Assembly: GCA_000002435.2 (NCBI GenBank)
Contig: CM018793.1
Length of the DNA: 64,000 bases
Strand: one strand, 5' to 3'
Source: Giardia intestinalis
Taxonomy: Eukaryota
In this document: piece by piece, positions 12,556-64,000 of the stretch
Layout: every line of letters starts with the position of its first letter
Numbering within the stretch: the first letter of the stretch is position 1
The notes under the pieces: model-generated
Database searches by the model: none
The model's input: the letters and a program-made list of their open reading frames with translations, nothing else
Told to the model about the DNA's origin: nothing
Translations under genes and position numbers: made by a program

Positions 12556-12559
12556 AGGG

Positions 12560-15560: not shown

Positions 15561-15573
15561 CCATGGAATAAAA

Positions 15574-18617: not shown

Positions 18618-18619
18618 AC
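18613..18619 (+). terminator. polyadenylation signal AGTAAAC overlapping the stop
   Basis: cacgAGTAAACcc; TAA at 18615-18617. Confidence 0.6.
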
Positions 18620-18778
18620 CCGTCGTTCCCTTCACGAGAAGCAGAAGGCCCTGGAGAACAGGCCATACGGACCAGCGCCCCATGCTTCTGGCCGTGCCAA
18701 AATACCATGAAACAGCGTCTCCAAGTTTTCTATCAATATGTCTTATGAAGAGCCGCGATCGCAATTGGGAGGCAAAGA

Positions 18779-19537: not shown

Positions 19538-19539
19538 AC
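19533..19539 (+). terminator. polyadenylation signal AGTAAAC overlapping the stop
   Basis: ttcaAGTAAACgc; TAA at 19535-19537. Confidence 0.6.
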
Positions 19540-19829
19540 GCTAAGAGGCGCTCCACGCACTGCAGATGTCCACCTAGTCGGGGCTCACCAGTAGGATTGC
19601 TTTGGCAGCTGCGCCACGAACCACACAGGACGGAGACGCGGTGATTGGCGCAGCCTCAGAAGGAGCCAGCGGACGCGACCCGTGACAGTCTGACAGGACC
19701 AGATTTGTGAAGACGTCTGCCTCTGCAAGCCCCTCCACCCAGCGGCCGTAGCCGAGACCCACCCTGGCCCTCTTTCCCATCAGTCCACCCAGACAAGGCT
19801 TACTGTAGAACCGATGCTTCCCGCTGTTC

Positions 19830-42783: not shown

Positions 42784-43172
42784 TGGCCACTCTGTTTTTG
42801 TTTTTTAAATTTTCTTCATCTAAATTGCGAGCAATGAAAAAGAAGATGGTGATAACGACTATGCGCTCTTGCTATTCTGCCAGGACAACTTTGTAGCTAC
42901 GCGGATCACAGAGCAGTTTATCACCTCCTGCTGCAGTTCCGTCCAGCGCTGTCCATGATCTGCTAAAGGTTTAAAAAGCTTTTAGAAACCACATCGAATT
43001 ATCTTCGCCCTACAAATCTACCAATTGCCGTCTTTTTTAAAATCTTTGGCGATTCCATAAAAATTCCGGGGGCCAGTAACGTAGAAGCTCGGCTATATGG
43101 ACGTAAAGTCTTAAATTTCTTTTACGCCATTTTGCAATTCATAAAATTATCAAGTTTGCCTTGGTGCGGTGC

Positions 43173-46379: not shown

Positions 46380-48628
46380 CTCGGAATAAGTTTTTCTAGG
46401 GATTCCGCGTACCTTATCACATACTCTACGCAATCGCTTTGGTCGTATTCCTTGCACCAATCTAACACTGTCTTTCCAGAAGCCTGTACAAGTTCGTACT
46501 CACGGGGCATCAGTATCTTCAGGCATTCCAGATTACCGTTTCTAGCTGCAGCCATGAGTGCCGTGAACCCGTTAACCTTTTGCATCCCTGCCTCCTTTTC
46601 ACATAGTAAACTAACTATTTCAAGATGCCCGTTCCACGCAGCGCTCATAAGAGCAGTCCAGCCGCTCTTCATAGAGAAGCCAGCCTCGCGCGAAACGAGA
46701 TATATGCAGGCTTCCACATTGCCCGAATCGGCCGCGGCCATCAAAGCTGTCCACCCGTCGGTCGATTGCATCCCTATCTCCACGTCCAATAGCTCAAGGA
46801 GTGTTTTGCCACCCCGCTTAGCGCCAATCATCAGTGAGGTTTGACCATCGTTCTTTTGCAGTCCTGCTTCGTGAGGAGCAAGGTGGCGAATAGAAGAGTA
46901 ATGGAGCGCCTTGACTGCAAAGTAGAGAGCAGTCCGTCCCTCCGAGTCCTGCTTTCTGGCCTCTTTGCCCGTTTCTATTAGAAGAGCGACAATATCAGCA
47001 TTTCCCACGCTAGCCGCCATCATCAGTGCAGTACGTCCGCTTTTGTTAGTGGTCCCAGCTTGAGACAGCAAGCTCTCAGCCATCCTGAGATCGCCGAGCA
47101 AAGCAGCCTGCATCAGTAGAGTGTTCGCCTTACTGTCAAATAGGACAGCAGATGAACGAAGCTCCTTCAATGGTGGCTGCTCTATTGTAATGTCAGACAG
47201 CTCGCACTCTATGTTCTCATCACCGTGTAGATCTGATAGATTCCCCCGAGGAGAGGGGATACCTGATAGTAGAGCCCTGTGTAATTCTACGTCAAATTGG
47301 GATGAGGAAGCGCCTAAATTGGGCTTAGCCGGTGACACAGATATAGGAGGCTGAAGGGTGGATGATGTCAGAGTGTCGAGGATTATAGATGATCGTCTTA
47401 GCTCACGGAGTGTGCTGTCCTTGACGACGGCAGTGTCTTGTGAGACTAATGAGTCTGTCTGCAATACTACATCGACCATCTCAACACTCTGAGTCAGCAT
47501 TGCAATCTTTTTATATGCAATCGAAAGTTCTTCCTTGTAAATAGATATTTCTGAATGCATAGAGGCCATCTTTGCTTTTATCTCCTCGTACTTGGCCTCT
47601 TCCTTTGTCTGTACTTCTGCCCTTCGCCTAAAAGCTTGAAGTATTGCCTTGCAATACCTCCCAATGTCGTTGTAATTGTATATCTCTGACTTAGAAGATA
47701 AAGAAACGTCATAAACTCCTGCGGCAACTCCCTCATTTATCAGCTGAGAAAGGAGTCTCTGCAAGTAGCTTACACGATAGTTCGAGACGGTCGCATCCAT
47801 CGTGGTTGACATTGCAGATATACTAGACGAGGAGGGTCGCCGAGCATGATCAGGACGCTCTGCAGCCAATGTTTCGCATCTGCGCTCTAATTCCTGCAAC
47901 CGTGAATCAGCCATTCGACGCTCTATTTCGCCGTGCCAGCACTTTGTGCATGGAGTTGTGTTATTAATTCTCGCCAGGCGCACATACGCTAAAAGGTCCA
48001 CTATGGACGACGCCCGCACAGAGTTTGCTGCAGAAATCGCGCGGTTAATGTCGGCAATAATGGCTCCGTGGCCATTATTAATCAAATACTCTGCAGCCTC
48101 CACGCTGCCACTTAAACACGCGTGATCCAAAGCAGAATATCCCTGAAAGTCCCTAAGAGCCGGTGCATGTGTCTTGATTAAGATAGGCAGTGCGTCCATG
48201 GAACGGTTGCGTGCAGCGCGCATTAGCGGGCTGAATCCGTTGTCAGGAATGATGGTGCCTTCTAGTGGAAGAAGAGTAATGCAGGCAGGGGCGTTATTAG
48301 ATTCGGCTGCGTAACAAAGGGCTGTGGAGCCACTGTTGTCAACCATCCCTCCTTCGTGTCGTGCCAGGAGAATAACTGCCGAAATATTAAGAGGGCTTTC
48401 AGTGCCGATGTGAGGTGGTTCTCTAGGGTCACCATAGTGCTGCATGTCTCCAGATCCGTGCAAAGGATCAGCAGAATGTGCCACACCCAAAACGGCCCTC
48501 ATCAGTGCTGTCCGGCCTGCGTCATCCTGTGACCGCTTGAAGTTGGCCAGGTGCTTACTTAAAAAGACAACATCACCAGTCTCAGCAGCCTTCATCCATC
48601 GCGAAGAGTCAAAGGGTTTGCTGGTCAT
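46376..48628 (-). CDS. ankyrin-repeat / coiled-coil protein (750 aa; 21.1-type)
   Basis: N-terminal and C-terminal ankyrin blocks (GRTALMRAVLG..., RTALMMAASVGNADIVALL, WTALMAAADSGNVEACIYLV, WTALMSAAWNGHLEIVSLL, FTALMAAARNGNLECLKIL) flank a coiled coil. Its stop shares the palindrome CTAG (46376-46379) with the stop of the convergent 43173..46379 gene. Confidence 0.75.
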   Translation of the reverse strand: MTSKPFDSSRWMKAAETGDVVFLSKHLANFKRSQDDAGRTALMRAVLGVAHSADPLHGSGDMQHYGDPREPPHIGTESPLNISAVILLARHEGGMVDNSGSTALCYAAESNNAPACITLLPLEGTIIPDNGFSPLMRAARNRSMDALPILIKTHAPALRDFQGYSALDHACLSGSVEAAEYLINNGHGAIIADINRAISAANSVRASSIVDLLAYVRLARINNTTPCTKCWHGEIERRMADSRLQELERRCETLAAERPDHARRPSSSSISAMSTTMDATVSNYRVSYLQRLLSQLINEGVAAGVYDVSLSSKSEIYNYNDIGRYCKAILQAFRRRAEVQTKEEAKYEEIKAKMASMHSEISIYKEELSIAYKKIAMLTQSVEMVDVVLQTDSLVSQDTAVVKDSTLRELRRSSIILDTLTSSTLQPPISVSPAKPNLGASSSQFDVELHRALLSGIPSPRGNLSDLHGDENIECELSDITIEQPPLKELRSSAVLFDSKANTLLMQAALLGDLRMAESLLSQAGTTNKSGRTALMMAASVGNADIVALLIETGKEARKQDSEGRTALYFAVKALHYSSIRHLAPHEAGLQKNDGQTSLMIGAKRGGKTLLELLDVEIGMQSTDGWTALMAAADSGNVEACIYLVSREAGFSMKSGWTALMSAAWNGHLEIVSLLCEKEAGMQKVNGFTALMAAARNGNLECLKILMPREYELVQASGKTVLDWCKEYDQSDCVEYVIRYAESLEKLIPS

Positions 48629-48684
48629 GGCAATATCCCATTAAAAAATTCTGCTTCATACAAAACCTTTTCCCAGGCTACAGT

Positions 48685-51600
48685 TCAACCACCAGATCGC
48701 TTCCTGCCTGTGTATCTCCGCATCCCAATTCCGCTTCCGGGTCTAGCTATCCCGCCAATCGTTATCCATGTGCTTCCGTCCTCGGGTTTGAATCTCCGCT
48801 GTCCGAGAGCCTCTATGTGCGCTAGCTCGCTTTCCGTGAGGTTCTCATTCAGGCTCTGCTCAATACTATTGGTGTTGCTAATGAGATTCTTGACATGGCT
48901 CTGTGACAAATATCTGGATTGAGAAGTCGTACCTGATGTAGCCATCGCTCCTCTTTTCCAAGGGTTTTTACTACCGACGTCTTTTTTATGATCAGCTTCA
49001 AATGAGCTGGAAGGGCGAAGAAGGGTATTTGGAGTGTGATCCACACTACAGATAGATTGTTCTGCAGAGCTATTGACAGAACCCCTGGAAATGAGTTTGA
49101 TTTGTCTTTGTGCACCGGCAAGCACTTCAGGCAAAATGGGTTTCTGAACAGGGACGCCAGTAAGGATCATGGAAACCCCGTCTCTATTAGTAGACTTCTG
49201 GTACTCGCACTCAGCTACGCTCATAGACCCTGGCTTTTTAACGCTCTTCTTAGTGTTCGGTAGACGATTCCTGTCAAGGGAAGATTGGCATCTATGAACA
49301 GGCACCTCCTTGGCGTTATTTGTGTCGGTGTATCTTGCAAATAATTTATTAAGGCCTTCTGTGTCATCGTTGGAACTGAGACTTGTCTGGAGTGACGAAT
49401 TTAGTGAAAAGTAATTAGGTGTCATGTCTGCCACCATGCCTGCCTCTAAGGTCTTCTCCACGTGTCGAGGAAGCCGCACCCCGGCGCTTTTGATGGAGCT
49501 GAGCCTAGAACTCTGACTTGCAGTTCTCCTTTCTGTGGTGGAAATGTTTGAAAGATCCCTTGATATGGGAGTGTTGTCTGGTATGCACGACTGCTTTCGC
49601 TCTTTCCTTTTATGAATAGCGTCTATCTGCTCTGCAGCCTGATGGCCAGTAGGAAGTGGCCTTAGAGTAGGAGAGTCGTCATGTGAAGATGTGCCATCTG
49701 ATGACAAAGATGCATTCTTCGGTGCAATATTTTCTGTTGTGACAAGCTTCTGCAGAATACGACCTAGATCCTTATCTTGGCGGGGTGTCTTCATTCCTCG
49801 TGATCGCAAGCTGTCTATTGTGAGCCGGGCAGCCTTTTGCTTAACGTTCAATGACATGTTCAGCTGTACGATATTTAGCGAACCTTTCGTTCCTGAAGGT
49901 GGCTTGAGGTGACTTCCTGACATTGGTCTAGAGGAGGAACTTGTTATTTGGGCAGCACTTGGAGCGTGGGAATCGTCGCTAATGGTGACTCGGCGACCTT
50001 TCTTATTGAGCGTGCTAGAGGGCTCATGAATGGAAGATTGTTCCTCAGACAGATCATCTAGCTTTTCCTGAACATCAGGTACCTCGCACATTGAAAAGAA
50101 TGATTCGGATTGGGATATAAACTCCACAATGCTACCGTCAAATTCATCTAGGTCTCCCCTCTGTAATCTGTCCAGTCGCTGCTTAATGTCTCGAGACAGC
50201 ATGTCCAAATTGTTCATTTTAAGCGCGAGGGCTACCGTTTTGGTGGGAGAGAAAGCCAGAGGGCTCGGTGTACCATCTTTCACCATTGTTAGTTTTATAT
50301 CGCTAACAGGTAACGCTGTGTGTGGTCGAGACAGCTCCTTCGCCATTGATACAGCAGCGTTCTTAGCAAGGCTAGACCTGCTATCTGCCAAGTCAGCGTT
50401 ACTCTCTCGAGCCTCCAGGTTTTCGCGTGTCTTCCTTATCTCCTTTGCTTCCATCTCATCGGAATTAACTCCATACATATAATCATACGCTCCAACTTTC
50501 GACTTTCCACTGGTCAACGCTTCCATTGAGATTCGCTTAAATAAAGTGTCTGAACTTTTCATGATGAGCGGCAACTGAGAGAACACGGAATCGAGATCAT
50601 CCAGGACCATGTACTGAATGCTAGTAAGCATGTTATTCTTGTGCTGTGCTTCAAATAGTCGTGTAGAGAACTCAATCATTACAAGACGACTAAGAAACAA
50701 GTGCCTCATGCGATGCTGCATATCTAGCTCCCTTTCGCTCACGATGGTAGATGCAAATCTTTGTGAGCCAGAGCTATGCGATGTTCCTGTTGTAGGCCTT
50801 GTAGAGCGGTAGGACAGCAATAGTGTTTTATCACTCTTCTCGGATGCTTCGCTTTCTTTGGCTCTTTCTCTCGCCGTAATTGGCATTTCGCCGGTTCCAA
50901 ACGGTGCTGTATTTAGTGACGGCTCTAGACTGTATTTCTCAAAGGGTTCTTCATTAGCAATAGGGAAGTATCGCTGGAGAGCCTCCTTGAATGCTGCACC
51001 CTTGCGATAGCTAATGAGCAACAGGCCGCTTATATTATATATGGGCCCATGGAGACGCCAGTTCCGCATGACTTCCATCATGAGATAGCGTATACGCTCT
51101 AATTCAGCCTTATGCTCAACTTCCTTTTGATGTCTTCTAATTTGATACTCTCTAAATACAGCCGGATGCTTGGTGTAGTACTCACTATTCAACGTTAGAG
51201 CCTTTTCAATCAAAAGATCCAAATCGTAGTCATGCTGTTGTAACAAATTTTCAAATCGCTCGGAATAAAGCCTAACAGCTTGAATGTTCAGGACATGGTG
51301 CATGTTAAAGACGAGCCTGTTCCATAGGTCATAGCATGATGCCGTGTCATTACTGTATGCTCTAGTGTTCTCCATCAGCTGCGAAATCTGTGCATTTCTA
51401 ACTTCCAAACTCTTTACAGCTCTTTGACTCTGTAGCACCGCAGACACATCCATAACATGCTTATTTAGAGTTTTGGTGTGTAGAAGAAAAGATCTATAGT
51501 CTATATAGTCCACAGGAAGCATTATAAACTGTCTCAAGTGTGTTGCGCTGTATATGCCGATAGGGTTGCATTCCGCTTTTCTATTAACTAGGGAATATGT

Positions 51601-54600
51601 GTCTAACACACTTTCAGATCCATACAATACATGTGCAAAGCCAGACGTAGCTGTACACGGTGGAAGGTCACTTAGCGGCGTTGTTTGCTTAGTTATGATC
51701 GGCACAAACTCCTTTTCTACCATTGTCTTAAAATAAACAGCGGCCTCCCTGTGCCTAAAAATATGTGAAAGAGAGCACGCAAAGCTCTCCGATGCTTGTA
51801 AAATAATGATCTCCATAAGATAGGTGGGTAACTGTCTGCTGTGACAAAGTGATTGTGAGCGAGCAAATGTATTTATCCACGTTTTTATACCAGATAGTTG
51901 GTTCTCAGGACGAGCTGAAGCCGCTCTTCTGTGATTGATTTGGCCGGGTCTAGAATTTTCCGTGGTCGGAGTGATTGAGGTGTGACCTGCTAAAGCGTGA
52001 GTGCCTCTGGTTATTACTATTTCTTTTGTCAGCTCTCGTGCACCACAGCTTTGGCCCCCTCTGGATGGTGTGCTGACGAGTCTTTCTCTACCAAATGACT
52101 GGGATAGCATCCGCTGAATATCCACAGTAAATACATGAGTAGTCAGACGCATAGAACTGAGGCCAATATCTTCTCCTATCTCCCTGTTTTCTGAAAGGCA
52201 ACCCTTTCCAATACTTGACTCCAGCAAGCTTTTGTATGTACTCTTCTCTGAATAGGAAGCCAAAGTGATGGCTGGTCGACTCTCTAGTACGTTTCGCTGA
52301 TCACAAATATGACTGACCTCTGTATCTGCGAGCGCAGCTTTATTCACGGGTTTCTGCGTCTCAGATATACTCCCCCCTGTTTTCCTTGGTGCTATGCGCC
52401 TGCCGAAGATATCGTACATATTCATGATTCTATTCCGTTTGCGACGACCAACTCTGCTCAAATCTGGAAGCGTGTCCGGACAGATTTCATATAATTGTTC
52501 TTCTTGTGCTCGCAGTCTGTTATATTTATATCTATCATATCTGCAAGTTAAGAGGCCTTTCAGAAAGATTTCTGGATCGTCGCTAGTATCTTCCTTAGTA
52601 CTTAGCGTAAAGAGCATAATATTCTTAGTCCTCTCTGCAATCGTCACGTATGCAGATGTCGCTGATGTCAAGACGTTTGCTGCATCGGAGTACGCCAGAT
52701 CCCATGACTTGGCTAGCCCCCAGTACTGGGCATTAAGAGTATTGAGAAAGGACGCCTCAATTGGTCCACTGAGACAATCAACAGATAAGAACCGAAGTCC
52801 ACTAGGAAATATAGCACTCGCAAGTCGTGCGGAAGAAAACGTTAGACTATGCAAATGGTCTATGTACCTTTGCTTGTCATATAGCTTTGAAGAGAGCTCA
52901 TGAATGGAAGACTCTGAGAAATCTACCCCCTTGTCGTGCTCCATTGCACGTTTGTCTTCCCTAGAATTGTAGATTTCACCTCTGGGTGCAACTGTGTGCA
53001 TAGCAAAGGTTCCCGACGAGATCTGAAAGTCTTTAGTTTGAGTGCCCCCAGAAGCTGATTGATGCAACAAAATTGAAGTTGAAAGGTTTTTCTTCTGTGG
53101 TAACAGATATTCTGGCCGGGGAGTAGAAACATATACATCCCTTCCTATCGCGTCGACGATCAGCTTTTTGTTGAAGCAAGACTCAATGTTTCGTACTACT
53201 TTTGAGGCTAGGATAAGGGATGTTTCAAATGCGAGACAACAATTCTCTGCGGTGCTTGTATGATTGTGCATGTAGACGCCACTGAAGACAAGTTCTTCGT
53301 CGGAAATAGACGTATCTAGAAAGTCCTTTAGACTTTTCATCCTTGGCTGTAAGAGATTGGATGTAGTTGGAACGGCAGAAGTTATAGGGCTGTACTGACG
53401 TATATTATATGCTCCAAGAGTGTAATAGCTTACGTCTGGATAGAACCTTACATAGTTGTTCTGTAAGACATTCTCTGTCGATTTTGATATCTTCGAACAT
53501 TGGAGTCTACTTCTAATTCTCCGGTGCACGATGCTTCGCGTCTCTGCAGACGGAATAACCGCTCCGTGAGAGTCATTCCACCGCCTTCCGAACAAGGTCA
53601 TGCTGGGAACAGGTCTGTGGACACAACAATTCTTGCTTAGGCTATACTTCCAGTGGCTAATACTGTAGTATATATTGCAGTCATCATACAGTGTGTCCTT
53701 AGTAAGAGAGTGAGACGAGTATCGCTCCAACTTACGCAGCTCTTCAAACGAACGTGCCCTTCGTGCTTTACTTTCTGACTGTTTGGGCTTGACGTGCCTA
53801 TTACTGATAATGCTATGTTGATCCTGGGTGGAACGTAGAGCTGTATCAAACGACTTCCCGGACGTAATAGTAAACGAATGGTGTAAATCGCTATGGTATG
53901 ACGGGCTTGATGAACGACTGGCCTGAAAGCTCATGGATTGGCTACGACTAGCATTGTGGCGCGAAGTAGGTCTTTGATGAATGGATTGGCGATCAATACA
54001 CGACCTCTGAGCGGATTTAGATCTTGGAGGTATTAGTAATACATTTTCTGTACTACGCAAAAGATTTTGGGTGTTCGTTATCTCACGATCATAATCTGCA
54101 ACGGAAACATCGACAAGCGGATGGTCTGTGTATAAAATCAGGCGTCTTCTTCCTTCTGGATACACCATGTCTGCAGTCGTTGTTATAGAGGCACGGTTGG
54201 ATACCGCAATAGCAGCGTGCATCGGTGTGCATCTCCTGTTAATAACATCTAGTGCATTCGTGGAATTGGAGAGTTTTGAGAAGACCCCGTGCAAAAAGCC
54301 CATAAAGCGTAGGCTGTCAAGCCGTTGTCTCAGGATAAACTCTGGATTCAGGCATGTATCTATATGGGCCTCCGAGGTCAGCTGAGGCATATTATAATAG
54401 AAGTACCTTTTGTGCTTTTTCAACCCTGATGCTTGCATCTCTACTTCCGTATATGTACCGAATGCCAGTATACCGTGGTATTCTGCGTGTAAAATCTTCT
54501 GCGTCAATGGGTATAAATAAGTGCTCAGTGAGGTCAGGTATTCAGACAGGACAATTAGTTGCTGGGATCTGAAGGCTGCTGCATCTCTTTTAAACGAGTC

Positions 54601-57600
54601 TGTCTTTGCAGTAATGTATCTTTGATATATCTGGGTCAGTTGAACACCAAACGGTTCCTGCGGCTTGGTCTTCTTATTGGAGAGGACAGGGCATGATTGC
54701 ATAATTAATTCCCTAGTATCATGCAAACTTGTGGATGGAGATTGTGAAGGTACGTGTGAGATGGTCACAGATCCATTGCATATAGAGGAAAATGGTAGCA
54801 TAGGTGTGCTAAACGAACGCAGTTGTCCTGAAGTTAGGTCTAAGTCAGATAGTTCAATATTGCCGGGTGTTACACGATCGATATGTGGACCTGAGAAAAA
54901 CACATCCGCGGAAAGGGAAGGGTCAGTTTGAGTATGGTCATGTGACTGGAAATCCAAGAAGCACGTCTGCACTGCACAGCTATAGCCGTCACTCGTCCGA
55001 CGAAGAAAGTCACAACAGGAGCGAGACCTCCCAGGACGGGTGCTAAAGCCTTCTGTTGGTGTCAGGGTACCATAGCGATAACTTCTGTGAGATGGCTTCT
55101 TAGAGGAGGCACGGGGAGAGCGCATCTGCGTGATGACTGCTCCAACAAAAGTGTCGCTGTCATCTGACCATCGAGCTGGAGACGATGACCTAGAGTAGGA
55201 GAAGCTATTACTTTTTGAGGTCCGCCTAGTTGACGACGCTGATGACACGCTAGATGTGGGAGAAATGTGCGAGGAAGTGCGTGCTTTTCCAGCAGTAGCC
55301 GGGAGTGGAGTGTCTGCTTTGCTAGGTACTTTAAGCCCTAAGGCTGATAAAACGATGTCTGGACGCCTCAAATTATACGGTGATCGGTGTGACATAGAGA
55401 GAAGAAGGTCTCTGTCTCGAGAGCGGAGATTGATGAGCTCAGATGGATGGTGCAGACCTTTGACATGCTCCTGGATAGAAGAAAAGCACTCTGGGCGGGG
55501 GCTAGATGCCGCTGGACGTAGAGCTCCAGAGGATGGACGTGGGGGAAGGCCACTGTGGATGCTATCTTGGGCGAGGCCAGAGACAGCCGGAATAGAGGTC
55601 CCGTGTCCTCTACTCTTTTCGCTGACAGATCCGTTAAGGGAATCATGGGATTGAGAAGTAAGGATATCACTGGGAAAAGACACAGCAGATGAACTTCTAG
55701 AACGTATCAGGTTTTGATTTTCTTTGAGTTCTAAGGTATTGGCATCTTCTGCATCTGCAAGACCGACTTCAGGAGCGCTATCAAATGGAGTAATCGATTT
55801 TCTATCTACTAAAGAAGCATCTTTAGATTTAGAAGTCTGGGGCATTGAAGTCTGTTGGCTACTTCGTAACGTACTTGGTTCCTTATTAGACAATGGATGT
55901 ATCCGACAGGTAGAATCGTTGAGCTCCAATAGCTGTGTCTTTGCCACCATATCTGGCCTTGCTGGTACTACATGATCCCCAATAGTTCTTTTGGTGTTAT
56001 CGTGATTTTGCGTTGTCTGTGGTTTTAAGCTAGTGATGCTGTCTGCTAGCTCTGGCAGAAGATGAAAATCATTATGTTGCTGAGTAGGTAAGGTTGCTAG
56101 AGCTTTGGATGATCCAAAAGATGAAGTTAGAGATGGGTCAATTGGTTGTAACGATTTCACCCTTGCCGAAGTTGACAAGCTCATTGTGGAATTTGAAGCG
56201 TAGCTATACCTATCTTGTAACTCCTTTCCACTAGCGTTACGCCCTTGTATCAAAGAACTGTGCAGGTTGGATGGAAACGCAAGATTGACACGTAGCGCAT
56301 TCAGGTCAGCTCCGTCTTGCCTTGTATGTGCCGTGACTGTTTGGGAACCAGTTAAATTGTTCCTACGTAACCTGTTTCCCTTATTTGGTTGTCGCCTTAT
56401 AAGATTCTTTTCAGTCAAGTTTTCTGTAGAAGTTCCAATAAAGATGGATGGCACAATCAATTCTGGAATTTCCAGTGATTGATTGTCCTGAATCGTTTTC
56501 TTAGCTGCGAGGGTACGCCTTCTCATGGTGTGAAACTTCATGGGTGAAAGGACAACGGAATGCAGGAGGACTGAAGGCTTGTCACTATACCTTGTGACGT
56601 TCATGTTGATCAAATCTAACGTACTGACCTCTAACGGTTGGTCAGTGTCCCGGAGCTGCTCGCATATGCTCTTTCCAGTAGACCCCATTAGAGACACCCT
56701 GCTATCATAAACAACCCCTTCTGTAGAGCGTTGCATGGTTTGTAAGCTGATTGCTTGCTCCTGAACCTCTTCAAAGCGCTTCTGTGTTTGCATTAAATCC
56801 TGGATGCGTATTGCATGCTGCTCCATAAGCCCTCGTTTCTCATGCAGGAAAGAAAATAGCTGCTCTTTGAAGATGGAATCATTCTTAACAACTTGCGGCA
56901 GAAGAGGCTCCAGTGCTCTAATGTTATCGGGCTGAGATGCTGAATCAACCATACGTAACAGCAAACGGACTAAATCTTTACGCTTAACCTGGATTGCAGT
57001 GTTGGTGGTTTGGGAGTCAAACGTGTGCTGTGCTGGAAGTATGTCATAATCGGCTAATATAGTCTGAATCAGGGAAGCGTCTTCAAGAAGAGGATGTCTT
57101 AGCTTCGCTTTGGTCTTCTGGCCGCGAAGACCACTCACTTGTTTAGCAGTAGTAACTGGTGGTGCACTGTTCTGGTCAGTCTGAAATTCATACCGTGGTA
57201 GTAGTTCATTAAGAGACTCAACTGATTCCCTCGGAAGAAGGTGCTGGAACGAAGTACTCCTCCGTTTTTCTAAGCTCTCTTTCATCTGTTGTGAGTCTAA
57301 ACTGGGGTGTTGACCGCCGCCGTCACCCTGCCAAAAATGCTCTCCGCTGCTCGTTTCTTCATTATCTGCACATCCATATATGTCTGAATCTGCCCGGTAT
57401 ATTTTGGTCAGCCTGTCGGCATTCAAAGAGCGAATCTCTCCGTTAGCACCAACACCGACATCGAGATATGAAAAGACTTGTAATACATCCTTGAGGGAAT
57501 ACGGCGCAAAGCGGGTACGTGCTTGGGCGAGACTACGCATATACCTAGCGCTTTGAACTCCATCCCTTGCTACACGAGGTTGCATGAATTGGGCCTTGTC

Positions 57601-60600
57601 AACTGGTTTGATGTTCTCATTACTACTCCTTGTTTCTGTGTCATGGAGGTATCTGTAGCTAGGCGCTAATGCAGCAGACGAAACGTTTGCTGCGCCTATT
57701 TTCCATGTTAGTCTCTGAGGCTCCTTAAATTTCTTTTCTTTGACTGGCGAAATCTGATGACCCACGGATTGATTGGATAGAATGCCGTTGTTATTTAAAC
57801 TGACACTTATCTTTTCTGGAGAAAGACCCCTTCCCATTGCTGGCTCGCTGGATACATGTAGCATGTTAGGAAAAGCCCTATTTATCTCTGTAACAGCGGC
57901 GTTCCACATTTCGTCGCGGGCTTCGATCGCTTCTTTTTCGGTGGTCTGACGATACGCCGCCTGCCTCATTATAGTGAGCTTATACACTATGTTTCCAAGG
58001 GCTGATGACAGCTTCGCAAGAGAAGATAGGGGAAGCCCTCTGTCTAATAACACACCTTGGTGCATGGGAGTGCCAGCGCTGGGTCTGCGGTCTAAGGAAT
58101 TAGCCCCCCGATCCTCCAGGGCAGTTGGCGAAAAAGGCTTACTTTGAGCGTTATTACGCCGCACTTGTTGAATTAGTGCACCAGTTATACTCTCAGTATA
58201 ACGGGTAAGGAAGCGCTTCTCTTTCTCTCCATACATATGCACAGAAAGGGCGTCCAGAACGTGGGTTAATTGCTGGTTTAAATCAATGAGTGTAGGGCCG
58301 CTCCTTACATCACTCGTGTCAGGTCGGGACAATGGATAGAATTCAATCGCAGACAAGACGCTTGCATCATTAGGTACGCTAGTTAGTTTTCTAGAGGTTT
58401 CACTGGCAGACCACCTAGGCCTATGGATGACATCCGCTCTTTCCGATTGAGTTGTAGATATGAATGACCCGTCATCGGTGAGGAGGTTAGATCCGTGTCT
58501 TTCTCCTTCAAAAGGAGCCTGGGGAGCAAATAGAGGCGTTAGAACACTGCCAGCATCAGTGCATCTGGGCCCTTGTACAGATAACGGACGAGAAACCTTA
58601 TAAACTAAGCTTCCAACAGGCTCTACTGAATCGGTAAGATCCCTCTGTTGTAGCATGTTGAAATGGTGCTTGTGTGCATACTCAATGCGTGTTCTCATAT
58701 CATAGTACTTCGGAATGCCAGTGAAGACGGTTACACGAACTGTGTTCCTTGTCTGTGCTCTAGATTTTAGCCATGCATGATGGGTTTCACGTGGTAACAA
58801 CGTCTCCATAGAACTTATGCGCCGAGTAAAGCGGGAAGAAGGGAGAGAGGATGGCCGCATAGGCTTCTGGTGAACAGCCCGTGGCAGTGGTTGTAGAGCA
58901 GAGCTGGTGGATGCAGATAGTGCCTTATGCTCCTCCATTTGATCAGAGGATGCAATGGGATACAAAATATCGGGAGGGCGCAGTTTCGGCCTAAGAGTTT
59001 GTGGATCAGACTTGGATGCTTTCAATGTTTCCTTCCGAAAGTGACTACTAAATAACTGTGAGCTCTTTGGGGATGATCTAAAAATACGATGCTCATTATG
59101 AACCATGGCCGTGGATGAGTTGCTACGCTCGTTGTTATCGTCTGCAGAGGTAGATGAATCCATGCTACCATCGCGACTATTCGTTGGCCGTGATTCTCTA
59201 CGAAAGTCAGCCAAAATATTAGGTTGTGTAGTGCCTGACAGAGGAGCATTGCTCAGACCCCCTTGCTGAGCTGTACAAGCGCTAGTGTGCTTTTCTTCTA
59301 AGTGAGAAGTGTTACTTTCAGAGTATGCTACAACAGATATATCAGCGGGCAGACCTTCGGAAGGGCCTGCAAGTGTAGGAAAAGAGGCCTCCCTAGCAAC
59401 CGGGCTAGAGCCGCTCTTAGAAGGGTATATGAAATCTTTCGATTTGGAAGACGATACGTTAGATGTTCTTACTAGTGAAAGCGAGTGAGGAGCACTTGAC
59501 GGGGGTGCAGTCATAGTAGTCATGGCTCCAGTCGATAACGATAAGCTCTTTCTTAGTGAAGTAATGCCTGGTGTGGAAGAAGAAGTTTGCAGCGAATATA
59601 CTTGTAGGCTACTCAGCTCTTTTGCTGGCTGCAATGGGCAGCTAACCAGATCTTCCCTTTCCTGTCTCCGCAGTTCTGATGCCCCTAAAGAGGGCTCTTT
59701 ATCTGATTTATGGGCTTTGGGAATCCATCGAGTGGACATTGCGCTAGTCATGTTTCTTCCTGGATGCTTAAAATACATATCTGGCTTTAAGTCTGTGAGT
59801 TTGTGCGGCAAAATATTGTGGGAATCTAAGTAGCCTCTCCACTGTGATACGCCTTCTATTGTGCTCGGCTTTATCTGGTTGATATCTATCGCAGGAACAC
59901 CCAGCTGTTGATAGTAGAACCTAGCGTCGTCAAGGGTCTCTATTAAAATAGCGCGTTCGCTGTCTGTAAAAAGACCTGTCCGCGCCAAGAAGCTAAACAC
60001 ATTTTGCCTTCTATGAATATGCAGGAGCATCTTAATCTTATCATCTGTTTCATCTCGCCGGGGAAGCTTTAGAATATGAACCATTGCAGACGCCATAGAA
60101 GCATACTTTCTATTGCGTGACAGCAGCTTGGATATAGAATATAACTCTGACACACGCTCAACACGAGGCCAAGCTCTTTGATCAGACTCTAGAGAATCGT
60201 TCATTTGAGGAGTGCGATTACATGGTAAAGCAGCTGGTATGCTTGTGCTGTTTCCTTGAGAATGAGATTTGTGAGGCTTCAAAACTGGCAACTCAGAGCA
60301 CGACTCTTCAGTATGCTTATGCGTGCTGAGAATAAACGATACAATGCTATCAATCTTTCTCTCCTCGAGGTTAGTAGCATCTGAGGACGATGGAGGGGCT
60401 ACAATCTGCGGAGAATGCTGGTTAAGTGCACATCGATCAACACGATCAGCTGCTTCAGGGAGTGACATGGCACAACTGATTACATTAGAGATAGATTGTT
60501 CAATATTTTTAGTTGCAGCATAACCAGATAGTTGTGGCTCTGGATCATTTAGTAGATGATTGTTTTTTTCATGGCCAACACTACTAGTGGGAGATTGTCC

Positions 60601-63366
60601 ACTCAGGTCTACTACAGGCCGCATACTATTATCATATACCGTAATATGCTGAGAATCATGGTAGAAGGCACCACCACTTTTGTCCTGAGAAATATCACTG
60701 GATATGGAGGAAGATTCACCATTCTCTCGACATTTGGGAGACGTTCGAAAAGATCCGCCACTTATTGAGGCCAGTGTAGAGGAACTTTGAGATAGGACCT
60801 CCGATGCATCAGTTAACAGGTCACTAAGCGCAAGGTTAGTATCAGAACACTCGCCCTTGCCTGACCCAATTTTCTTATCCCGCGATCGTTCTCGAAGCCT
60901 ACCTCCAACAGTGCTATGCAAAAGACCGTCTCCTGATTGCCTCATCTTATCGTCTATTACTTTACGATAGTCTTGCTCGAAATTAAGGGAATGAACGCGC
61001 CGATGACGACCCATTATTACCTCACCTGAGATATTCGTGACAGGAAAAAACCGAGTATGATCATATCTATCTATTTCATTGCATGAAATTCGTTTATAGC
61101 GGTCGTAGTTGCCTTGTCGTGGGGATAGCTGACGATAATTATCCGGGTCATCTTGTCCATACTCAAAGCGCCTCATGATCTGGTCGAGCATCTTCTCTCT
61201 GATAAGGGTCTCTCTTGCCATTCGCAAATGAGCATCTGCAAGAGCAACTCTGTCTGAGAGAACTGTTCTAAACCGTGGCTCTTCCTCGTTTGTCTTCGGT
61301 GTAAAGGAACGTCCACCGGGACTGCTTTTCATCCTTTTTTCTCTTAGCTGTTTTAGTAATTGTACAGGCGAACGGGGATCACTCTTGCTTAATGCCCCTG
61401 CTCCCTGCCCCGTGCTACCACTTCTACTGATAGGTGTTCCACCCGTTTGATACAGATGAGAGTCCATAAATTGGTCGGCAGCAGAGGCAGAGATAGCTGT
61501 CTTCACCGACAGATCGATCATGGAGTCAAAGGCCGGAGCTAAGTTAGAGCCTAACTCCTTACAACCTTTCATAAATAATGACTGTTGAGCAAGATCTGCC
61601 GACTCGAAAATCACCCTAACGTCGTATGGATAATCCTCTTCACTATTACCGAGGATATCGCGCTCCCCCTGGGAGTAAAACCGATAGTTCCCAAAGCGCG
61701 GTATATAGCTAATTAACGGCAGTAGGAATTGCGGGAGGCTTATTGTATGAATAGTGTTAGCCATGGACACTAATAACCTGCCATTGTGTATGCGTAACTG
61801 CATATTTTTCTTAGGTTTCTCAGAGGCACTACACTTGTACAGGCCTGAGGTGGTCATGTTCTCTAGATACACCGGCCTAGAGATGGCGTTGTCATAGGCG
61901 GTGAGATTAAACGCAACAAGGTAGCCTTTAAAGCACGTGAAGAGAACGAGATAGTCATCAATAGATGCAATTTGTGACGATTCGAAGCCCTTAGTTAGAA
62001 TAACACTAGGGCGAGGAAGCTTTAGTGTTGTGGATTGCTTTGGAGTGTAGATTTCATCTCCAGAAAGTCCAGATTGACGATGTGCAGACCCACACTCCCA
62101 CTCCTCCACGAAAGTGTCTAGAAGTTCCTGCATCACGCCCTCAGCCTGTTCTTTGGCAAGTCTCTCTTTTAGTTCAATGTACTCTGTCAAAAAGTCACGC
62201 ATAGGAGGCTGATGTGACTCAGCATTCAATGCGGTCAAAGGACTAATGTTTTCGGTAGATTGATCATCACGCAGTGCTCTTTTTTGTGCCTCAGTATGCT
62301 TACTTATGCAGAATTTCCCTAACAGTGGGTCGCTGCCTAACAGAACACGAGCCTTGATCCCCGGTTTTCCTGTTATTTTTGTTTTTAGCCGACCAGATTG
62401 GTAGGTATTTGTACAAGCAATGTCGTGCTTCATTACCGCTTTTGTTTTAATATTTATTGTAAGCATCATTCCGTCAATATACCCCAGAAAGAGAGTAACC
62501 GGAGAAAGGATGTGTATTTGCTTGATGTGCTCCGGATAAACACGCTCGAAGAAAATGAAGTTGGCAAGGCTTGATACACCAACAGGTGACACATCGGAAG
62601 CTGGGACAGGTTGATTCTGGACCCGTTGCCTAAGAGATTCCGACGTCATTAATATGTACACACGTCCAGTTATGTCTCCTATGAAAGAAAGCCCAAGGTT
62701 TCCAAAACACATTGCTGTGATACGGTTCCGTAGGTAATAGGGGGTGATCTGAGAAAAGTTACTGCAATAAAGGAGCGCATTGAAAGAGGGTATCCGCAAG
62801 TCTGCATTAAAGTCAACGTGAAAGGAGAGCATAAAGCTCTGGTGGTTAGTGGGATCGATCTCCATGTGTACATCTGATATTGTTCGATTTAGCTGCATAA
62901 CCGGAGCATACATATTTGTTCTGTTATCAATTGCCAGATCAATGCAACGGCCTGCATCCAAAGAATGAACTAAGTCAACGGCTCTAACAGACGGAGTACT
63001 GTACGATTTGCCAAACGACTGCAGAATATATAAGATTCCGTCTTCTGTTATTACATAAAGACATGTATCATTCCATGCTGCTCCCACGCGTAAAACGTTG
63101 AACTTAAATGATTGTCGCGAAATTAGAACAGAGTTGGCTGCAGATAAAAGAATTGTTGTATTCTTAGTTGCCACAAAGATGTAGCTAGTGGATAAAGTAA
63201 AGTCTATTATTTCTGTGGGTGCTTTATAATGGATACCGATGGTAGTCAATCTGTGGCCTTCAGGAGGAGCTGATTTTGCATTAGCTACTCCTCGATTAGG
63301 AGCATTAGACATCAAATTTAGTGATGGTGGGCTTGACTGATCGCTGTTGTTGATCGCTTTTAACAT
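48685..63366 (-). CDS. giant hypothetical protein (4893 aa), mostly S/T/N-rich low complexity with a structured N-terminal ~500 aa
   Basis: A single uninterrupted 14.7-kb ORF starting at the genuine ATG (aattaaacagagaacacagctcaATGttaaaa), with no competing ORFs on either strand. Composition is strongly biased (S, T, R, L), and no catalytic motif is recognised by eye. Confidence 0.8.
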   Translation of the reverse strand: MLKAINNSDQSSPPSLNLMSNAPNRGVANAKSAPPEGHRLTTIGIHYKAPTEIIDFTLSTSYIFVATKNTTILLSAANSVLISRQSFKFNVLRVGAAWNDTCLYVITEDGILYILQSFGKSYSTPSVRAVDLVHSLDAGRCIDLAIDNRTNMYAPVMQLNRTISDVHMEIDPTNHQSFMLSFHVDFNADLRIPSFNALLYCSNFSQITPYYLRNRITAMCFGNLGLSFIGDITGRVYILMTSESLRQRVQNQPVPASDVSPVGVSSLANFIFFERVYPEHIKQIHILSPVTLFLGYIDGMMLTINIKTKAVMKHDIACTNTYQSGRLKTKITGKPGIKARVLLGSDPLLGKFCISKHTEAQKRALRDDQSTENISPLTALNAESHQPPMRDFLTEYIELKERLAKEQAEGVMQELLDTFVEEWECGSAHRQSGLSGDEIYTPKQSTTLKLPRPSVILTKGFESSQIASIDDYLVLFTCFKGYLVAFNLTAYDNAISRPVYLENMTTSGLYKCSASEKPKKNMQLRIHNGRLLVSMANTIHTISLPQFLLPLISYIPRFGNYRFYSQGERDILGNSEEDYPYDVRVIFESADLAQQSLFMKGCKELGSNLAPAFDSMIDLSVKTAISASAADQFMDSHLYQTGGTPISRSGSTGQGAGALSKSDPRSPVQLLKQLREKRMKSSPGGRSFTPKTNEEEPRFRTVLSDRVALADAHLRMARETLIREKMLDQIMRRFEYGQDDPDNYRQLSPRQGNYDRYKRISCNEIDRYDHTRFFPVTNISGEVIMGRHRRVHSLNFEQDYRKVIDDKMRQSGDGLLHSTVGGRLRERSRDKKIGSGKGECSDTNLALSDLLTDASEVLSQSSSTLASISGGSFRTSPKCRENGESSSISSDISQDKSGGAFYHDSQHITVYDNSMRPVVDLSGQSPTSSVGHEKNNHLLNDPEPQLSGYAATKNIEQSISNVISCAMSLPEAADRVDRCALNQHSPQIVAPPSSSDATNLEERKIDSIVSFILSTHKHTEESCSELPVLKPHKSHSQGNSTSIPAALPCNRTPQMNDSLESDQRAWPRVERVSELYSISKLLSRNRKYASMASAMVHILKLPRRDETDDKIKMLLHIHRRQNVFSFLARTGLFTDSERAILIETLDDARFYYQQLGVPAIDINQIKPSTIEGVSQWRGYLDSHNILPHKLTDLKPDMYFKHPGRNMTSAMSTRWIPKAHKSDKEPSLGASELRRQEREDLVSCPLQPAKELSSLQVYSLQTSSSTPGITSLRKSLSLSTGAMTTMTAPPSSAPHSLSLVRTSNVSSSKSKDFIYPSKSGSSPVAREASFPTLAGPSEGLPADISVVAYSESNTSHLEEKHTSACTAQQGGLSNAPLSGTTQPNILADFRRESRPTNSRDGSMDSSTSADDNNERSNSSTAMVHNEHRIFRSSPKSSQLFSSHFRKETLKASKSDPQTLRPKLRPPDILYPIASSDQMEEHKALSASTSSALQPLPRAVHQKPMRPSSLPSSRFTRRISSMETLLPRETHHAWLKSRAQTRNTVRVTVFTGIPKYYDMRTRIEYAHKHHFNMLQQRDLTDSVEPVGSLVYKVSRPLSVQGPRCTDAGSVLTPLFAPQAPFEGERHGSNLLTDDGSFISTTQSERADVIHRPRWSASETSRKLTSVPNDASVLSAIEFYPLSRPDTSDVRSGPTLIDLNQQLTHVLDALSVHMYGEKEKRFLTRYTESITGALIQQVRRNNAQSKPFSPTALEDRGANSLDRRPSAGTPMHQGVLLDRGLPLSSLAKLSSALGNIVYKLTIMRQAAYRQTTEKEAIEARDEMWNAAVTEINRAFPNMLHVSSEPAMGRGLSPEKISVSLNNNGILSNQSVGHQISPVKEKKFKEPQRLTWKIGAANVSSAALAPSYRYLHDTETRSSNENIKPVDKAQFMQPRVARDGVQSARYMRSLAQARTRFAPYSLKDVLQVFSYLDVGVGANGEIRSLNADRLTKIYRADSDIYGCADNEETSSGEHFWQGDGGGQHPSLDSQQMKESLEKRRSTSFQHLLPRESVESLNELLPRYEFQTDQNSAPPVTTAKQVSGLRGQKTKAKLRHPLLEDASLIQTILADYDILPAQHTFDSQTTNTAIQVKRKDLVRLLLRMVDSASQPDNIRALEPLLPQVVKNDSIFKEQLFSFLHEKRGLMEQHAIRIQDLMQTQKRFEEVQEQAISLQTMQRSTEGVVYDSRVSLMGSTGKSICEQLRDTDQPLEVSTLDLINMNVTRYSDKPSVLLHSVVLSPMKFHTMRRRTLAAKKTIQDNQSLEIPELIVPSIFIGTSTENLTEKNLIRRQPNKGNRLRRNNLTGSQTVTAHTRQDGADLNALRVNLAFPSNLHSSLIQGRNASGKELQDRYSYASNSTMSLSTSARVKSLQPIDPSLTSSFGSSKALATLPTQQHNDFHLLPELADSITSLKPQTTQNHDNTKRTIGDHVVPARPDMVAKTQLLELNDSTCRIHPLSNKEPSTLRSSQQTSMPQTSKSKDASLVDRKSITPFDSAPEVGLADAEDANTLELKENQNLIRSRSSSAVSFPSDILTSQSHDSLNGSVSEKSRGHGTSIPAVSGLAQDSIHSGLPPRPSSGALRPAASSPRPECFSSIQEHVKGLHHPSELINLRSRDRDLLLSMSHRSPYNLRRPDIVLSALGLKVPSKADTPLPATAGKARTSSHISPTSSVSSASSTRRTSKSNSFSYSRSSSPARWSDDSDTFVGAVITQMRSPRASSKKPSHRSYRYGTLTPTEGFSTRPGRSRSCCDFLRRTSDGYSCAVQTCFLDFQSHDHTQTDPSLSADVFFSGPHIDRVTPGNIELSDLDLTSGQLRSFSTPMLPFSSICNGSVTISHVPSQSPSTSLHDTRELIMQSCPVLSNKKTKPQEPFGVQLTQIYQRYITAKTDSFKRDAAAFRSQQLIVLSEYLTSLSTYLYPLTQKILHAEYHGILAFGTYTEVEMQASGLKKHKRYFYYNMPQLTSEAHIDTCLNPEFILRQRLDSLRFMGFLHGVFSKLSNSTNALDVINRRCTPMHAAIAVSNRASITTTADMVYPEGRRRLILYTDHPLVDVSVADYDREITNTQNLLRSTENVLLIPPRSKSAQRSCIDRQSIHQRPTSRHNASRSQSMSFQASRSSSPSYHSDLHHSFTITSGKSFDTALRSTQDQHSIISNRHVKPKQSESKARRARSFEELRKLERYSSHSLTKDTLYDDCNIYYSISHWKYSLSKNCCVHRPVPSMTLFGRRWNDSHGAVIPSAETRSIVHRRIRSRLQCSKISKSTENVLQNNYVRFYPDVSYYTLGAYNIRQYSPITSAVPTTSNLLQPRMKSLKDFLDTSISDEELVFSGVYMHNHTSTAENCCLAFETSLILASKVVRNIESCFNKKLIVDAIGRDVYVSTPRPEYLLPQKKNLSTSILLHQSASGGTQTKDFQISSGTFAMHTVAPRGEIYNSREDKRAMEHDKGVDFSESSIHELSSKLYDKQRYIDHLHSLTFSSARLASAIFPSGLRFLSVDCLSGPIEASFLNTLNAQYWGLAKSWDLAYSDAANVLTSATSAYVTIAERTKNIMLFTLSTKEDTSDDPEIFLKGLLTCRYDRYKYNRLRAQEEQLYEICPDTLPDLSRVGRRKRNRIMNMYDIFGRRIAPRKTGGSISETQKPVNKAALADTEVSHICDQRNVLESRPAITLASYSEKSTYKSLLESSIGKGCLSENREIGEDIGLSSMRLTTHVFTVDIQRMLSQSFGRERLVSTPSRGGQSCGARELTKEIVITRGTHALAGHTSITPTTENSRPGQINHRRAASARPENQLSGIKTWINTFARSQSLCHSRQLPTYLMEIIILQASESFACSLSHIFRHREAAVYFKTMVEKEFVPIITKQTTPLSDLPPCTATSGFAHVLYGSESVLDTYSLVNRKAECNPIGIYSATHLRQFIMLPVDYIDYRSFLLHTKTLNKHVMDVSAVLQSQRAVKSLEVRNAQISQLMENTRAYSNDTASCYDLWNRLVFNMHHVLNIQAVRLYSERFENLLQQHDYDLDLLIEKALTLNSEYYTKHPAVFREYQIRRHQKEVEHKAELERIRYLMMEVMRNWRLHGPIYNISGLLLISYRKGAAFKEALQRYFPIANEEPFEKYSLEPSLNTAPFGTGEMPITARERAKESEASEKSDKTLLLSYRSTRPTTGTSHSSGSQRFASTIVSERELDMQHRMRHLFLSRLVMIEFSTRLFEAQHKNNMLTSIQYMVLDDLDSVFSQLPLIMKSSDTLFKRISMEALTSGKSKVGAYDYMYGVNSDEMEAKEIRKTRENLEARESNADLADSRSSLAKNAAVSMAKELSRPHTALPVSDIKLTMVKDGTPSPLAFSPTKTVALALKMNNLDMLSRDIKQRLDRLQRGDLDEFDGSIVEFISQSESFFSMCEVPDVQEKLDDLSEEQSSIHEPSSTLNKKGRRVTISDDSHAPSAAQITSSSSRPMSGSHLKPPSGTKGSLNIVQLNMSLNVKQKAARLTIDSLRSRGMKTPRQDKDLGRILQKLVTTENIAPKNASLSSDGTSSHDDSPTLRPLPTGHQAAEQIDAIHKRKERKQSCIPDNTPISRDLSNISTTERRTASQSSRLSSIKSAGVRLPRHVEKTLEAGMVADMTPNYFSLNSSLQTSLSSNDDTEGLNKLFARYTDTNNAKEVPVHRCQSSLDRNRLPNTKKSVKKPGSMSVAECEYQKSTNRDGVSMILTGVPVQKPILPEVLAGAQRQIKLISRGSVNSSAEQSICSVDHTPNTLLRPSSSFEADHKKDVGSKNPWKRGAMATSGTTSQSRYLSQSHVKNLISNTNSIEQSLNENLTESELAHIEALGQRRFKPEDGSTWITIGGIARPGSGIGMRRYTGRKRSGG

Positions 63367-63867: not shown

Positions 63868-64000
63868 TCACGCCTTCCCCCTGCAGAGGAACCACCAGCA
63901 GAGGAAGCCCACGAGGCCCCCCACGACAGCGATGACAGCCACGGAGATCCCTGCTATGGCACCAGTACTGAGGCCGCTCTTGTTGACGCTTCCGCCGGTG
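63868..64000 (-). CDS. VSP: variant-specific surface protein (VSP) 3' end: transmembrane helix + CRGKA tail (5' part lies beyond the window)
   Basis: Minus-strand translation of the window end is ...[43 protein letters not shown]. The hydrophobic helix plus the invariant C-terminal CRGKA is diagnostic of Giardia VSPs. Confidence 0.85.

Follow-up and report, generated by a model that had tools for sequence, protein, structure and literature searches.

GL50803_0091504 of Giardia intestinalis encodes a giant, genus-restricted protein of conserved blocks and Ser/Arg-rich linkers with a tentative propeller head

What kind of protein is encoded by a single open reading frame (ORF) of 14.7 kb in which no known domain can be recognized? 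This question is raised by a stretch of 64,000 nucleotides from contig CM018793.1 of Giardia intestinalis (assembly GCA_000002435.2), hereafter the window, whose longest feature is an ORF of 4,893 codons. The gene is among the largest of the hypothetical Giardia genes, a class that accounts for about 40% of the proteome according to PMC13322205, and such genes are easily missed by tagging and structure-annotation surveys. An earlier note, made from the letters of the DNA, had described the product as a low-complexity, serine/threonine-rich protein of structural or cytoskeletal nature, typical of diplomonads. In this study, we rejected the low-complexity description, found selection along the whole ORF, recovered a full-length orthologue that is only 26% identical, and drew a domain map that includes a tentative propeller head. 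On balance, we favor a reading in which the product would be a genus-restricted, cytosolic, non-enzymatic giant scaffold or tether with a propeller head, a function that is read from its architecture.

The gene and its putative start region are as follows.

48685..63366, minus strand: complete coding sequence of the giant protein (4,893 amino acids plus the TGA stop), GL50803_0091504, from the ORF list, the translation and 100% identity
63381..63400, minus strand: AT-rich stretch AATTTTAACAAAATTAAACA, 15-34 nucleotides 5' of the ATG, putative core promoter or initiator, read from the sequence

The ORF list and the translation give one uninterrupted frame from ATG to TGA with no stop in 4,893 codons, whereas the five other frames contain 165-406 stops each over the same 14.7 kb, so the open frame is not attributable to chance. 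Reading on from an upstream stop, the first start in frame is the ATG at 63366-63364, and the homologous methionine is the start in the three closer orthologues. The promoter role of AATTTTAACAAAATTAAACA is putative and draws on general knowledge of Giardia promoters. The earlier note had been right about the uninterrupted ORF, its exact coordinates (the minus strand being left unstated), its genuine ATG with AT-rich sequence 5' of it, its rank as the longest feature in the window, and its being giant and poorly characterized. The product is 100% identical over 4,893 residues to a protein already in the public databases (P0004 in our set; KAE8304681.1, XP_037902138.1, UniRef100_D3KHN7), which is named 'hypothetical protein GL50803_0091504' from Giardia intestinalis WB C6, carries the old identifier GL50803_91504, and has no function in its record. 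A literature search found the gene identifier in the main text of one paper only. The feature is an already annotated, uncharacterized Giardia gene, and its orthologues are likewise in public annotation.

At its 3' end, only 56 nucleotides (window 48629-48684) separate the TGA from the next same-strand ATG, that of an ankyrin gene at 46376-48628, and no canonical AGTRAA poly(A) motif occurs in the 200 nucleotides 3' of the stop; the 14.7-kb mRNA may end at a non-canonical signal or inside the next gene. On the opposite strand, a 169-amino-acid ORF with an ATG (52394-52903, plus strand) lies antisense inside the giant gene and is most likely a chance ORF.

Full-length orthologues and constraint in all estimable windows argue for one gene, not several. 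By cluster membership, six or more distinct sequences or assemblies carry full-length copies of 4,893 amino acids, and ten or more assemblage-B assemblies carry copies of 4,848 amino acids, the shorter cluster members being contig-end fragments. Nei-Gojobori comparison of the window gene with its orthologue P0003, from a Giardia-like lineage (contig L001), gave a proportion of synonymous differences (pS) of ~0.73, which is saturated, and a proportion of nonsynonymous differences (pN) of ~0.22 overall, and the ratio of nonsynonymous to synonymous rates (dN/dS) was 0.05-0.26 in each 300-codon window with estimable dS. Sense-strand AGTRAA motifs inside the ORF are not enriched (4 observed vs 7.1±2.5 in codon shuffles). 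By these comparisons, the whole ORF is coding and constrained, and it is a single gene under purifying selection. The earlier note had considered that the ORF might comprise several genes or be frameshifted in other assemblies; the intact copies, the window-wide selection and the unenriched AGTRAA motifs give no sign of either in the sequence data.

The distribution of the protein was examined in several collections. When 5.8 billion proteins were searched by word index, once with the single sequence and twice with profiles, only three clusters came back, all from Giardia and all full-length. An exhaustive HMMER search of 1.84 billion representatives with a profile of amino acids 1-820 recovered only Giardia fragments and one additional, divergent orthologue, P0031 (E 2e-18), and nothing outside Giardia at E≤1e-3. 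In JGI metagenomes, 214 pattern stretches matched and none was confirmed by tblastn. The sequences compared in this study are listed below, with identities to the window protein.

Assemblage A cluster: 4,893 amino acids
Assemblage B, GS, GL50581_1277: 4,848 amino acids, 66% identity
P0003, Giardia-like lineage, contig L001, SRR17450160: 4,911 amino acids, 61% identity
P0031, Giardia-like lineage, contig L002, SRR31929897: 4,640 amino acids, 26% global identity

P0031 is encoded on an 81-kb Logan contig of run SRR31929897. BLASTP aligns it with the window protein in at least nine collinear high-scoring segment pairs (HSPs) over the full length, from query 40 (subject 4) to query 4370 (subject 3980). 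It did not appear in the output of the third word-indexed search, and it was the HMMER search with amino acids 1-820 that recovered it. In a published orthologue table (PMC8700996 Table S3), the partners of GL50803_91504 are GL50581_1277 and G. muris GMRT_13925, the latter being taken from that table. The same table lists no assemblage-E (P15) orthologue beside those of GS and G. muris; the gene has probably not been lost from P15 but is broken up or left unannotated in its draft assembly.

The orthologues match the window gene in their full-length collinearity, similar length, Ser/Arg content and net charge, and synteny was shown for P0003, whose contig keeps the downstream gene order of ankyrin, TPR and TOG-like genes. 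All four are 4,640-4,911 amino acids long, so that the length conservation proposed as a check in the earlier note is indeed observed, and they carry a net charge of +81 to +89 with 12-13% Ser and 6-8% Arg. P0031 differs from the window gene in that a helical insert at amino acids ~357-450 and many linkers are shortened or unalignable. GC content is 40% in contig L001, 51% in L002, and about 46-49% where these genes lie in the window. The source lineages of the two contigs may be unsequenced or unannotated Giardia species. In the searches described, the protein is detectable only in the genus Giardia, and its length, collinearity and bulk composition are kept at 26% identity. Calling it typical of diplomonads was thus correct as to the source organism, which is a diplomonad, and too broad as to distribution, as no relative was detected outside the genus.

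The amino acid composition gives a different picture from that of a low-complexity protein. The product contains 13.0% Ser, 9.6% Leu, 7.3% Arg and 6.8% Thr; Ser plus Thr reaches 19.8%, compared with 11.8-18.2% in ten other ORFs of the window, and its net charge is +89, whereas those ten are mostly acidic and none is above +4. Shannon entropy is 3.8-4.1 bits in every 200-residue window, SEG-like masking (12-residue windows, entropy ≤2.2) covers 200 residues (4.1%) in 13 short patches, and self-BLASTP at E≤10 yields the identity match alone, i.e., no internal repeats. We therefore reject the description as low-complexity. The serine-, threonine- and arginine-rich remainder proposed in the earlier note is real as a moderate enrichment; disorder-like composition, by contrast, is found in only ~23% of the chain and in discrete linkers, not throughout the rest. 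Helix-rich, Pro/Gly-poor stretches that could form coiled coil number only seven, of 36-55 residues each. No transmembrane helix is evident, the maximal 19-residue Kyte-Doolittle mean being 1.58 in a single peak at residues 286-304, within the beta-rich domain, and the polar N-terminus MLKAINNSDQSSPPSLNLMSNAPNRG has no hydrophobic core of a signal peptide, as judged from composition without a dedicated predictor. The label 'Putative membrane spanning protein', which a record from one isolate (ESU35486.1) gives to the protein, is rejected for lack of a hydrophobic helix of ~19-21 residues. Judged from its sequence, the product is a soluble, basic and non-repetitive protein that is not of low complexity.

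Conservation, measured as invariant columns per 100-residue window among the G. intestinalis-type sequences, was used together with composition to map the protein. The regions are given below from the N-terminus to the C-terminus.

61687..63249, minus strand: N-terminal beta-rich domain, amino acids ~40-560, tentatively a WD40-like beta-propeller, with a helical, poorly conserved insert at ~357-450
60937..61569, minus strand: conserved, mostly helical block, amino acids ~600-810 (60-73% invariant columns)
58816..60939, minus strand: amino acids ~810-1517, two fast-evolving Ser-rich linkers (~810-1065 and ~1217-1517) around a small conserved block (~1066-1210)
56437..58809, minus strand: conserved blocks, amino acids ~1520-2000 and 2085-2310, from the conservation profile
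55567..56439, minus strand: hypervariable linker, amino acids ~2310-2600 (19-35% invariant; highest dN/dS window, ~0.26)
55018..55080, minus strand: conserved linear motif YRYGTLTPTEGFSTRPGRSRS, amino acids 2763-2783, in a basic Ser/Arg-rich segment
54010..54027, minus strand: PRSKSA motif, amino acids 3114-3119, invariant in four orthologues
49732..52929, minus strand: C-terminal conserved region, amino acids ~3480-4545, mixed helical blocks with the island LWNR..F..HH at 4014-4024 (50-68% invariant columns)
48688..49731, minus strand: Ser-rich, basic C-terminal tail, amino acids 4546-4893, with a terminal conserved WxTIGGIARPGSxIGMR, from invariant columns, composition and charge

Higher conservation, mostly 52-73% invariant with a few windows at 48-50%, is found at amino acids 1-800, 1100-1200, 1500-2000, 2100-2300, 2600-2800, 2900-3000, 3200-3400 and 3500-4500, and low conservation (15-42% invariant) at 800-1100, 1300-1400, 2300-2600, 3000-3100 and 3400-3500. 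It is in these less conserved stretches that the composition is Ser-rich and disorder-like. The N-terminal domain is among the best-conserved stretches, with 60-73% invariant columns over amino acids 101-600 and 50% over 1-100. In the block at ~600-810, DSSP analysis of the AlphaFold2 model places helices at 667-679, 700-735 and 796-808, and a helix-like stretch at 698-740 was found separately; after amino acid 600, crude periodicity gives a mixed alpha and beta signal. In the following region, amino acids 801-1100 are 32-42% invariant with indels at 901-1100, amino acids 1201-1500 are 35-52% invariant, composition is disorder-like at 834-904 and 1217-1517, and Ser plus Thr rises to 23-28%. 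Several islands survive in P0031, i.e., THHAWLKSRAQ..VRVTVFTGIPKYYDMRTRIEYA at 1528-1566 (BLASTP HSP 56% identical), YRYGTLTPTEGFSTRPGRS from amino acid 2763 (65% identity over 26 residues), PRSKSA at 3114-3119, SISDEE..GVY at 3353-3365, and LWNR..F..H at 4014-4024, with collinear HSPs at 3845-4029 and 4223-4400. As seen in these profiles, the protein is a mosaic, in which a conserved, beta-rich N-terminal domain of ~520 residues is followed by ~4,300 residues of conserved blocks alternating with fast-evolving Ser/Arg-rich linkers of disorder-like composition.

The earlier note had reported no convincing motifs by eye, and this was borne out by Pfam, which gave no family at E≤10 for the whole protein and four aligned members and likewise none for eight sub-segments; the best matches, at E 0.04-0.14 to unrelated families, were rejected as noise. 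HEAT, ARM and TPR families had no Pfam match in the giant protein. Among PDB sequences, the full-length profile and four sub-profiles found no match, and the remaining hits (RNA15, eL21, Rqc1 and SRB), all at E>0.2, were likewise set aside as noise. Of the sub-profiles, A6, used for the blocks at ~1520-2000 and 2085-2310, yielded nothing above noise, and for the C-terminal conserved region, part of which lies in the A5 alignment, neither PDB nor Pfam had a match. Two TSIP sequences seen by eye as possible EB1-type SxIP motifs were dropped, as the proline is not invariant among the orthologues, and 14-3-3 mode-1 and nuclear-localization-like motifs are neither enriched nor conserved.

The nature of the N-terminal domain deserves closer consideration. 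Hydrophobic periodicity of the beta type dominates amino acids 1-400. AlphaFold2 models were strand-rich with a helical insert at ~357-450, both for amino acids 1-820 from a three-sequence alignment and for amino acids 36-600 after addition of the divergent orthologue (four sequences), and both are of low confidence, with a predicted local distance difference test score (pLDDT) of 29 and 33.5, respectively. The earlier note had supposed that the first ~500 residues are folded and possibly beta-rich, which agrees with ~560 beta-rich residues by periodicity and by DSSP of the two models; the AlphaFold check that it proposed gave the strand-rich fold and did not give a confident one. A Foldseek search of PDB with the amino acid 36-600 model returned 25 matches at E≤1e-3. 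The matches listed, from this low-confidence model, appear by their entry titles to be WD40-type propellers and include WDR91, Vps18, mLST8, WDR4, Utp21 and ROD. A search of PDB with the N-terminal sub-profile (A4) gave no matches. A WD40-like propeller is our best guess for the head of the protein, one that we hold tentatively and that is not established.

Certain short motifs may bear on regulation. TP at 2769 and RSRS at 2780, both within YRYGTLTPTEGFSTRPGRSRS, are invariant in four orthologues, and the window of residues 2601-2800 has a net charge of +16. RSxS occurs 12 times, about two-fold over shuffled sequences (6.1±2.3), and RSKS at 3115 is invariant. On this basis, YRYGTLTPTEGFSTRPGRSRS is a candidate phospho-regulated binding site, PRSKSA may be a site of the basophilic-kinase type, and RSRS-2780, RSKS-3115 and TP-2769 can be read as candidate phospho-regulated sites.

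The literature provides some experimental traces of the gene. The expression table of an encystation RNA-seq study gives GL50803_91504 values of 7.3-8.3, on the table's own, unverified scale, and the gene is among those up-regulated at 14 h that have no Myb2 motif (PMC8700996). The protein is listed among WB proteins found only in the medium of Caco-2 co-cultures, a list that contains many cytosolic proteins (PMC5739509 Table 2), and it received 2, 5 and 2 hits, in replicate 1 only, in a screen for GlActin interactors (PMC8552679 Supplemental Table 3). The RNA-seq values, together with the peptides in co-culture medium and in the GlActin pull-down, indicate that the gene is expressed and the protein is made. 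The gene identifier was not found in the accessible supplements of a secretome paper (peptide tables) and a metronidazole-resistance proteome paper.

In the scaffold reading that we favor, the giant protein would act as a non-enzymatic intracellular scaffold or tether. Its N-terminal domain, tentatively a WD40-like beta-propeller, would be a protein-docking head, and the conserved internal blocks would bind further partners. The basic Ser/Arg-rich linkers would be flexible spacers, which could contact acidic surfaces such as those of cytoskeletal filaments, and they are probably phospho-regulated because of the conserved RSxS and TP sites. 

Several observations weigh against this reading. The scaffold function is derived entirely from architecture, and the term 'non-enzymatic' says no more than that the searches detected no known catalytic domain. 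As to the propeller, the first AlphaFold2 model (amino acids 1-820, without the divergent orthologue) gave no propeller matches, which shows both that such matches do not arise automatically from a poor model and that the finding of a propeller lacks robustness. Pfam WD40 has no match in the whole protein or in amino acids 1-620 at E≤10, and when eight putative blades were compared by hhalign the best probability was 2% (E 0.024), with no blade-to-blade similarity. The proteins of neighboring genes in the organism encoding P0031 are also fairly basic and Ser/Arg-rich, and the conserved bulk properties may partly mirror genomic background. The restriction to Giardia could reflect extreme divergence instead of true absence elsewhere. 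Finally, the gene identifier was not found in the accessible supplements of either the 608-protein localization atlas or the I-TASSER structure-based annotation study.

A second reading, suggested in the earlier note, is that the protein is a giant cytoskeletal component of the ventral disc, median body, funis, axoneme-associated structures or actin system, where it would form or cross-link filaments. Such a role is possible, and we give it a real but clearly minor share of the probability. The cytoskeletal organelles of Giardia are elaborate and lineage-specific and are built largely from lineage-specific proteins, and a genus-restricted protein would be at home among them. The charge of +89 could, in principle, favor binding to acidic tubulin tails or filaments, and the neighboring genes include ankyrin 'Protein 21.1'-type and TOG-domain genes, although gene order has little functional meaning in Giardia. 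However, the usual building principles of structural giants, tandem repeats and coiled coils, were looked for and are absent or, for coiled coil, almost so, and no microtubule- or actin-binding domain was detected by Pfam. The sole experimental hint is the few counts in the GlActin list, and that list is very long and includes abundant metabolic enzymes, the counts for this protein being minimal and confined to one replicate. The missing entry in the accessible atlas supplements, mentioned above, also counts against a cytoskeletal location. The earlier proposal of a structural or cytoskeletal protein is therefore not upheld by the hallmarks on which it could be tested.

In a third reading, the protein is the orthologue of a pan-eukaryotic giant with a propeller head, such as a protocoatomer-like coat or tether, a nucleoporin-type protein or a ROD-like protein; it would have diverged so extremely, through the fast evolution typical of Giardia, that no sequence signal is left. 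The structural neighbors of the model include Nup214, Nup133, the clathrin N-terminal domain, Vps11/Vps18, IFT-A subunits, Sec12 and ROD (of RZZ), and the family does evolve fast, with 66% identity between assemblages A and B and 26% to P0031, while length and order are kept. We nevertheless regard this reading as unlikely. At E≤1e-3, the best-conserved domain, used as a profile in the exhaustive search, had no match outside Giardia, profiles of the full length and of sub-regions had no PDB sequence match, the propeller matches reflect the fold in general and were obtained with a low-confidence model, and we know of no propeller-headed family of ~4,900 residues with such a block structure. That the protein is secreted or released to act on host cells as a virulence factor is very improbable; its appearance among the WB proteins specific to interaction medium (PMC5739509 Table 2) is offset by a hydrophilic N-terminus, MLKAINNSDQSSPPS, with no signal-peptide-like or transmembrane segment (the maximal Kyte-Doolittle value lying in the beta domain), by the cytosolic kinases, ribosomal proteins and Protein 21.1 members that fill the same table and fit lysis or vesicle release, and by the missing identifier in the accessible supplementary peptide tables. 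An annotation or assembly artefact, i.e., fused genes or a chance ORF, has a practically negligible probability, as no support for it was found beyond the two oddities at the 3' end (no AGTRAA within 200 nucleotides and the next ATG 56 nucleotides away), and as the stop-free frame, the intact full-length copies in many assemblies and four lineages, the purifying selection throughout the ORF and the lack of AGTRAA enrichment all speak against it.

Returning to the scaffold reading, a bolder version of it may be considered, to which we give little credence at present. The protein could be the founder of a family of ~540-kDa propeller-headed scaffolds specific to the genus Giardia, in which selection would keep length, block order, charge density (~+1.8 per 100 residues) and Ser/Arg content while the sequence drifts to 26% identity. 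It might then serve as a phosphorylation-tuned tether or ruler for the ventral disc, median body, funis or peripheral-vacuole system. As it stands, the gene is an ordinary uncharacterized orphan. The present analysis turns a blank entry into a testable target, and should the protein prove to tether an organelle specific to Giardia, this would be of importance for the cell biology of the parasite.

The other genes of the window fit Giardia. They include ankyrin genes of the 'Protein 21.1' type, a kinase-ankyrin ORF, SDA1, an ArfGAP, a TOG-like gene, and the tail of a variant-specific surface protein (VSP) with its CRGKA. The VSP gene runs off the window end (63869-64000, minus strand) and shows the transmembrane helix and CRGKA tail that are the hallmark of these proteins; AGTAAA lies 11 nucleotides after its stop, and the intergenic distance of ~500 nucleotides to the giant ATG is long for the window. 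On the other side, a TPR-like gene (43161-46379, plus strand, 1,072 amino acids) and the ankyrin gene (46376-48628, minus strand, 750 amino acids) are convergent, with a 4-nucleotide 3' overlap at 46376-46379. Further along, the minus-strand ORF at 37645-42783 (1,712 amino acids) has a weak N-terminal XMAP215/CLASP TOG match (E 6.7e-6, 26.5 bits, against a cutoff of 27.1) and is conserved beside the neighbors of the giant gene in contig L001; it is likely a divergent microtubule regulator. Window positions 12000-24000 form a GC-rich island (0.57-0.67, compared with 0.43-0.53 elsewhere), in which numerous ORFs overlap on both strands. Within it, the ORF at 16809-18617 (plus strand), with GTG as its 'start', encodes a protein-kinase domain from Pfam profile position 67 onward and then ankyrin repeats, and the ORF at 15421-16245 (plus strand) is ankyrin-only. 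These two resemble genes of the NEK-kinase or Protein 21.1 type, either broken into fragments or with their true starts missed in ORF calling.

How does the giant protein compare with known systems? ROD/KNTC1 (of RZZ), Vps11/Vps18 of HOPS/CORVET, IFT-A, Nup133/Nup214 and the clathrin heavy chain resemble it in having an N-terminal propeller, tentative here, followed by a long non-catalytic body. In contrast to these scaffolds, with which no sequence similarity was detectable, the giant protein is 2-4 times longer, and its body consists of conserved blocks and Ser/Arg-rich linkers and is not a demonstrated alpha-solenoid. Membership among the known propeller-headed scaffolds is not supported. 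EDC4/Ge-1 has a WD40 head, a Ser-rich linker and a helical C-terminal region in ~1,400 residues. It differs from the 4,893-residue Giardia protein in length, the two were not linked by any sequence match in the Pfam and PDB searches, and there is no evidence connecting the giant protein with mRNA decapping. Nevertheless, the order of modules is the same in both, with a Ser-rich disordered linker placed after a beta-rich head, and this likeness may serve as a lead.

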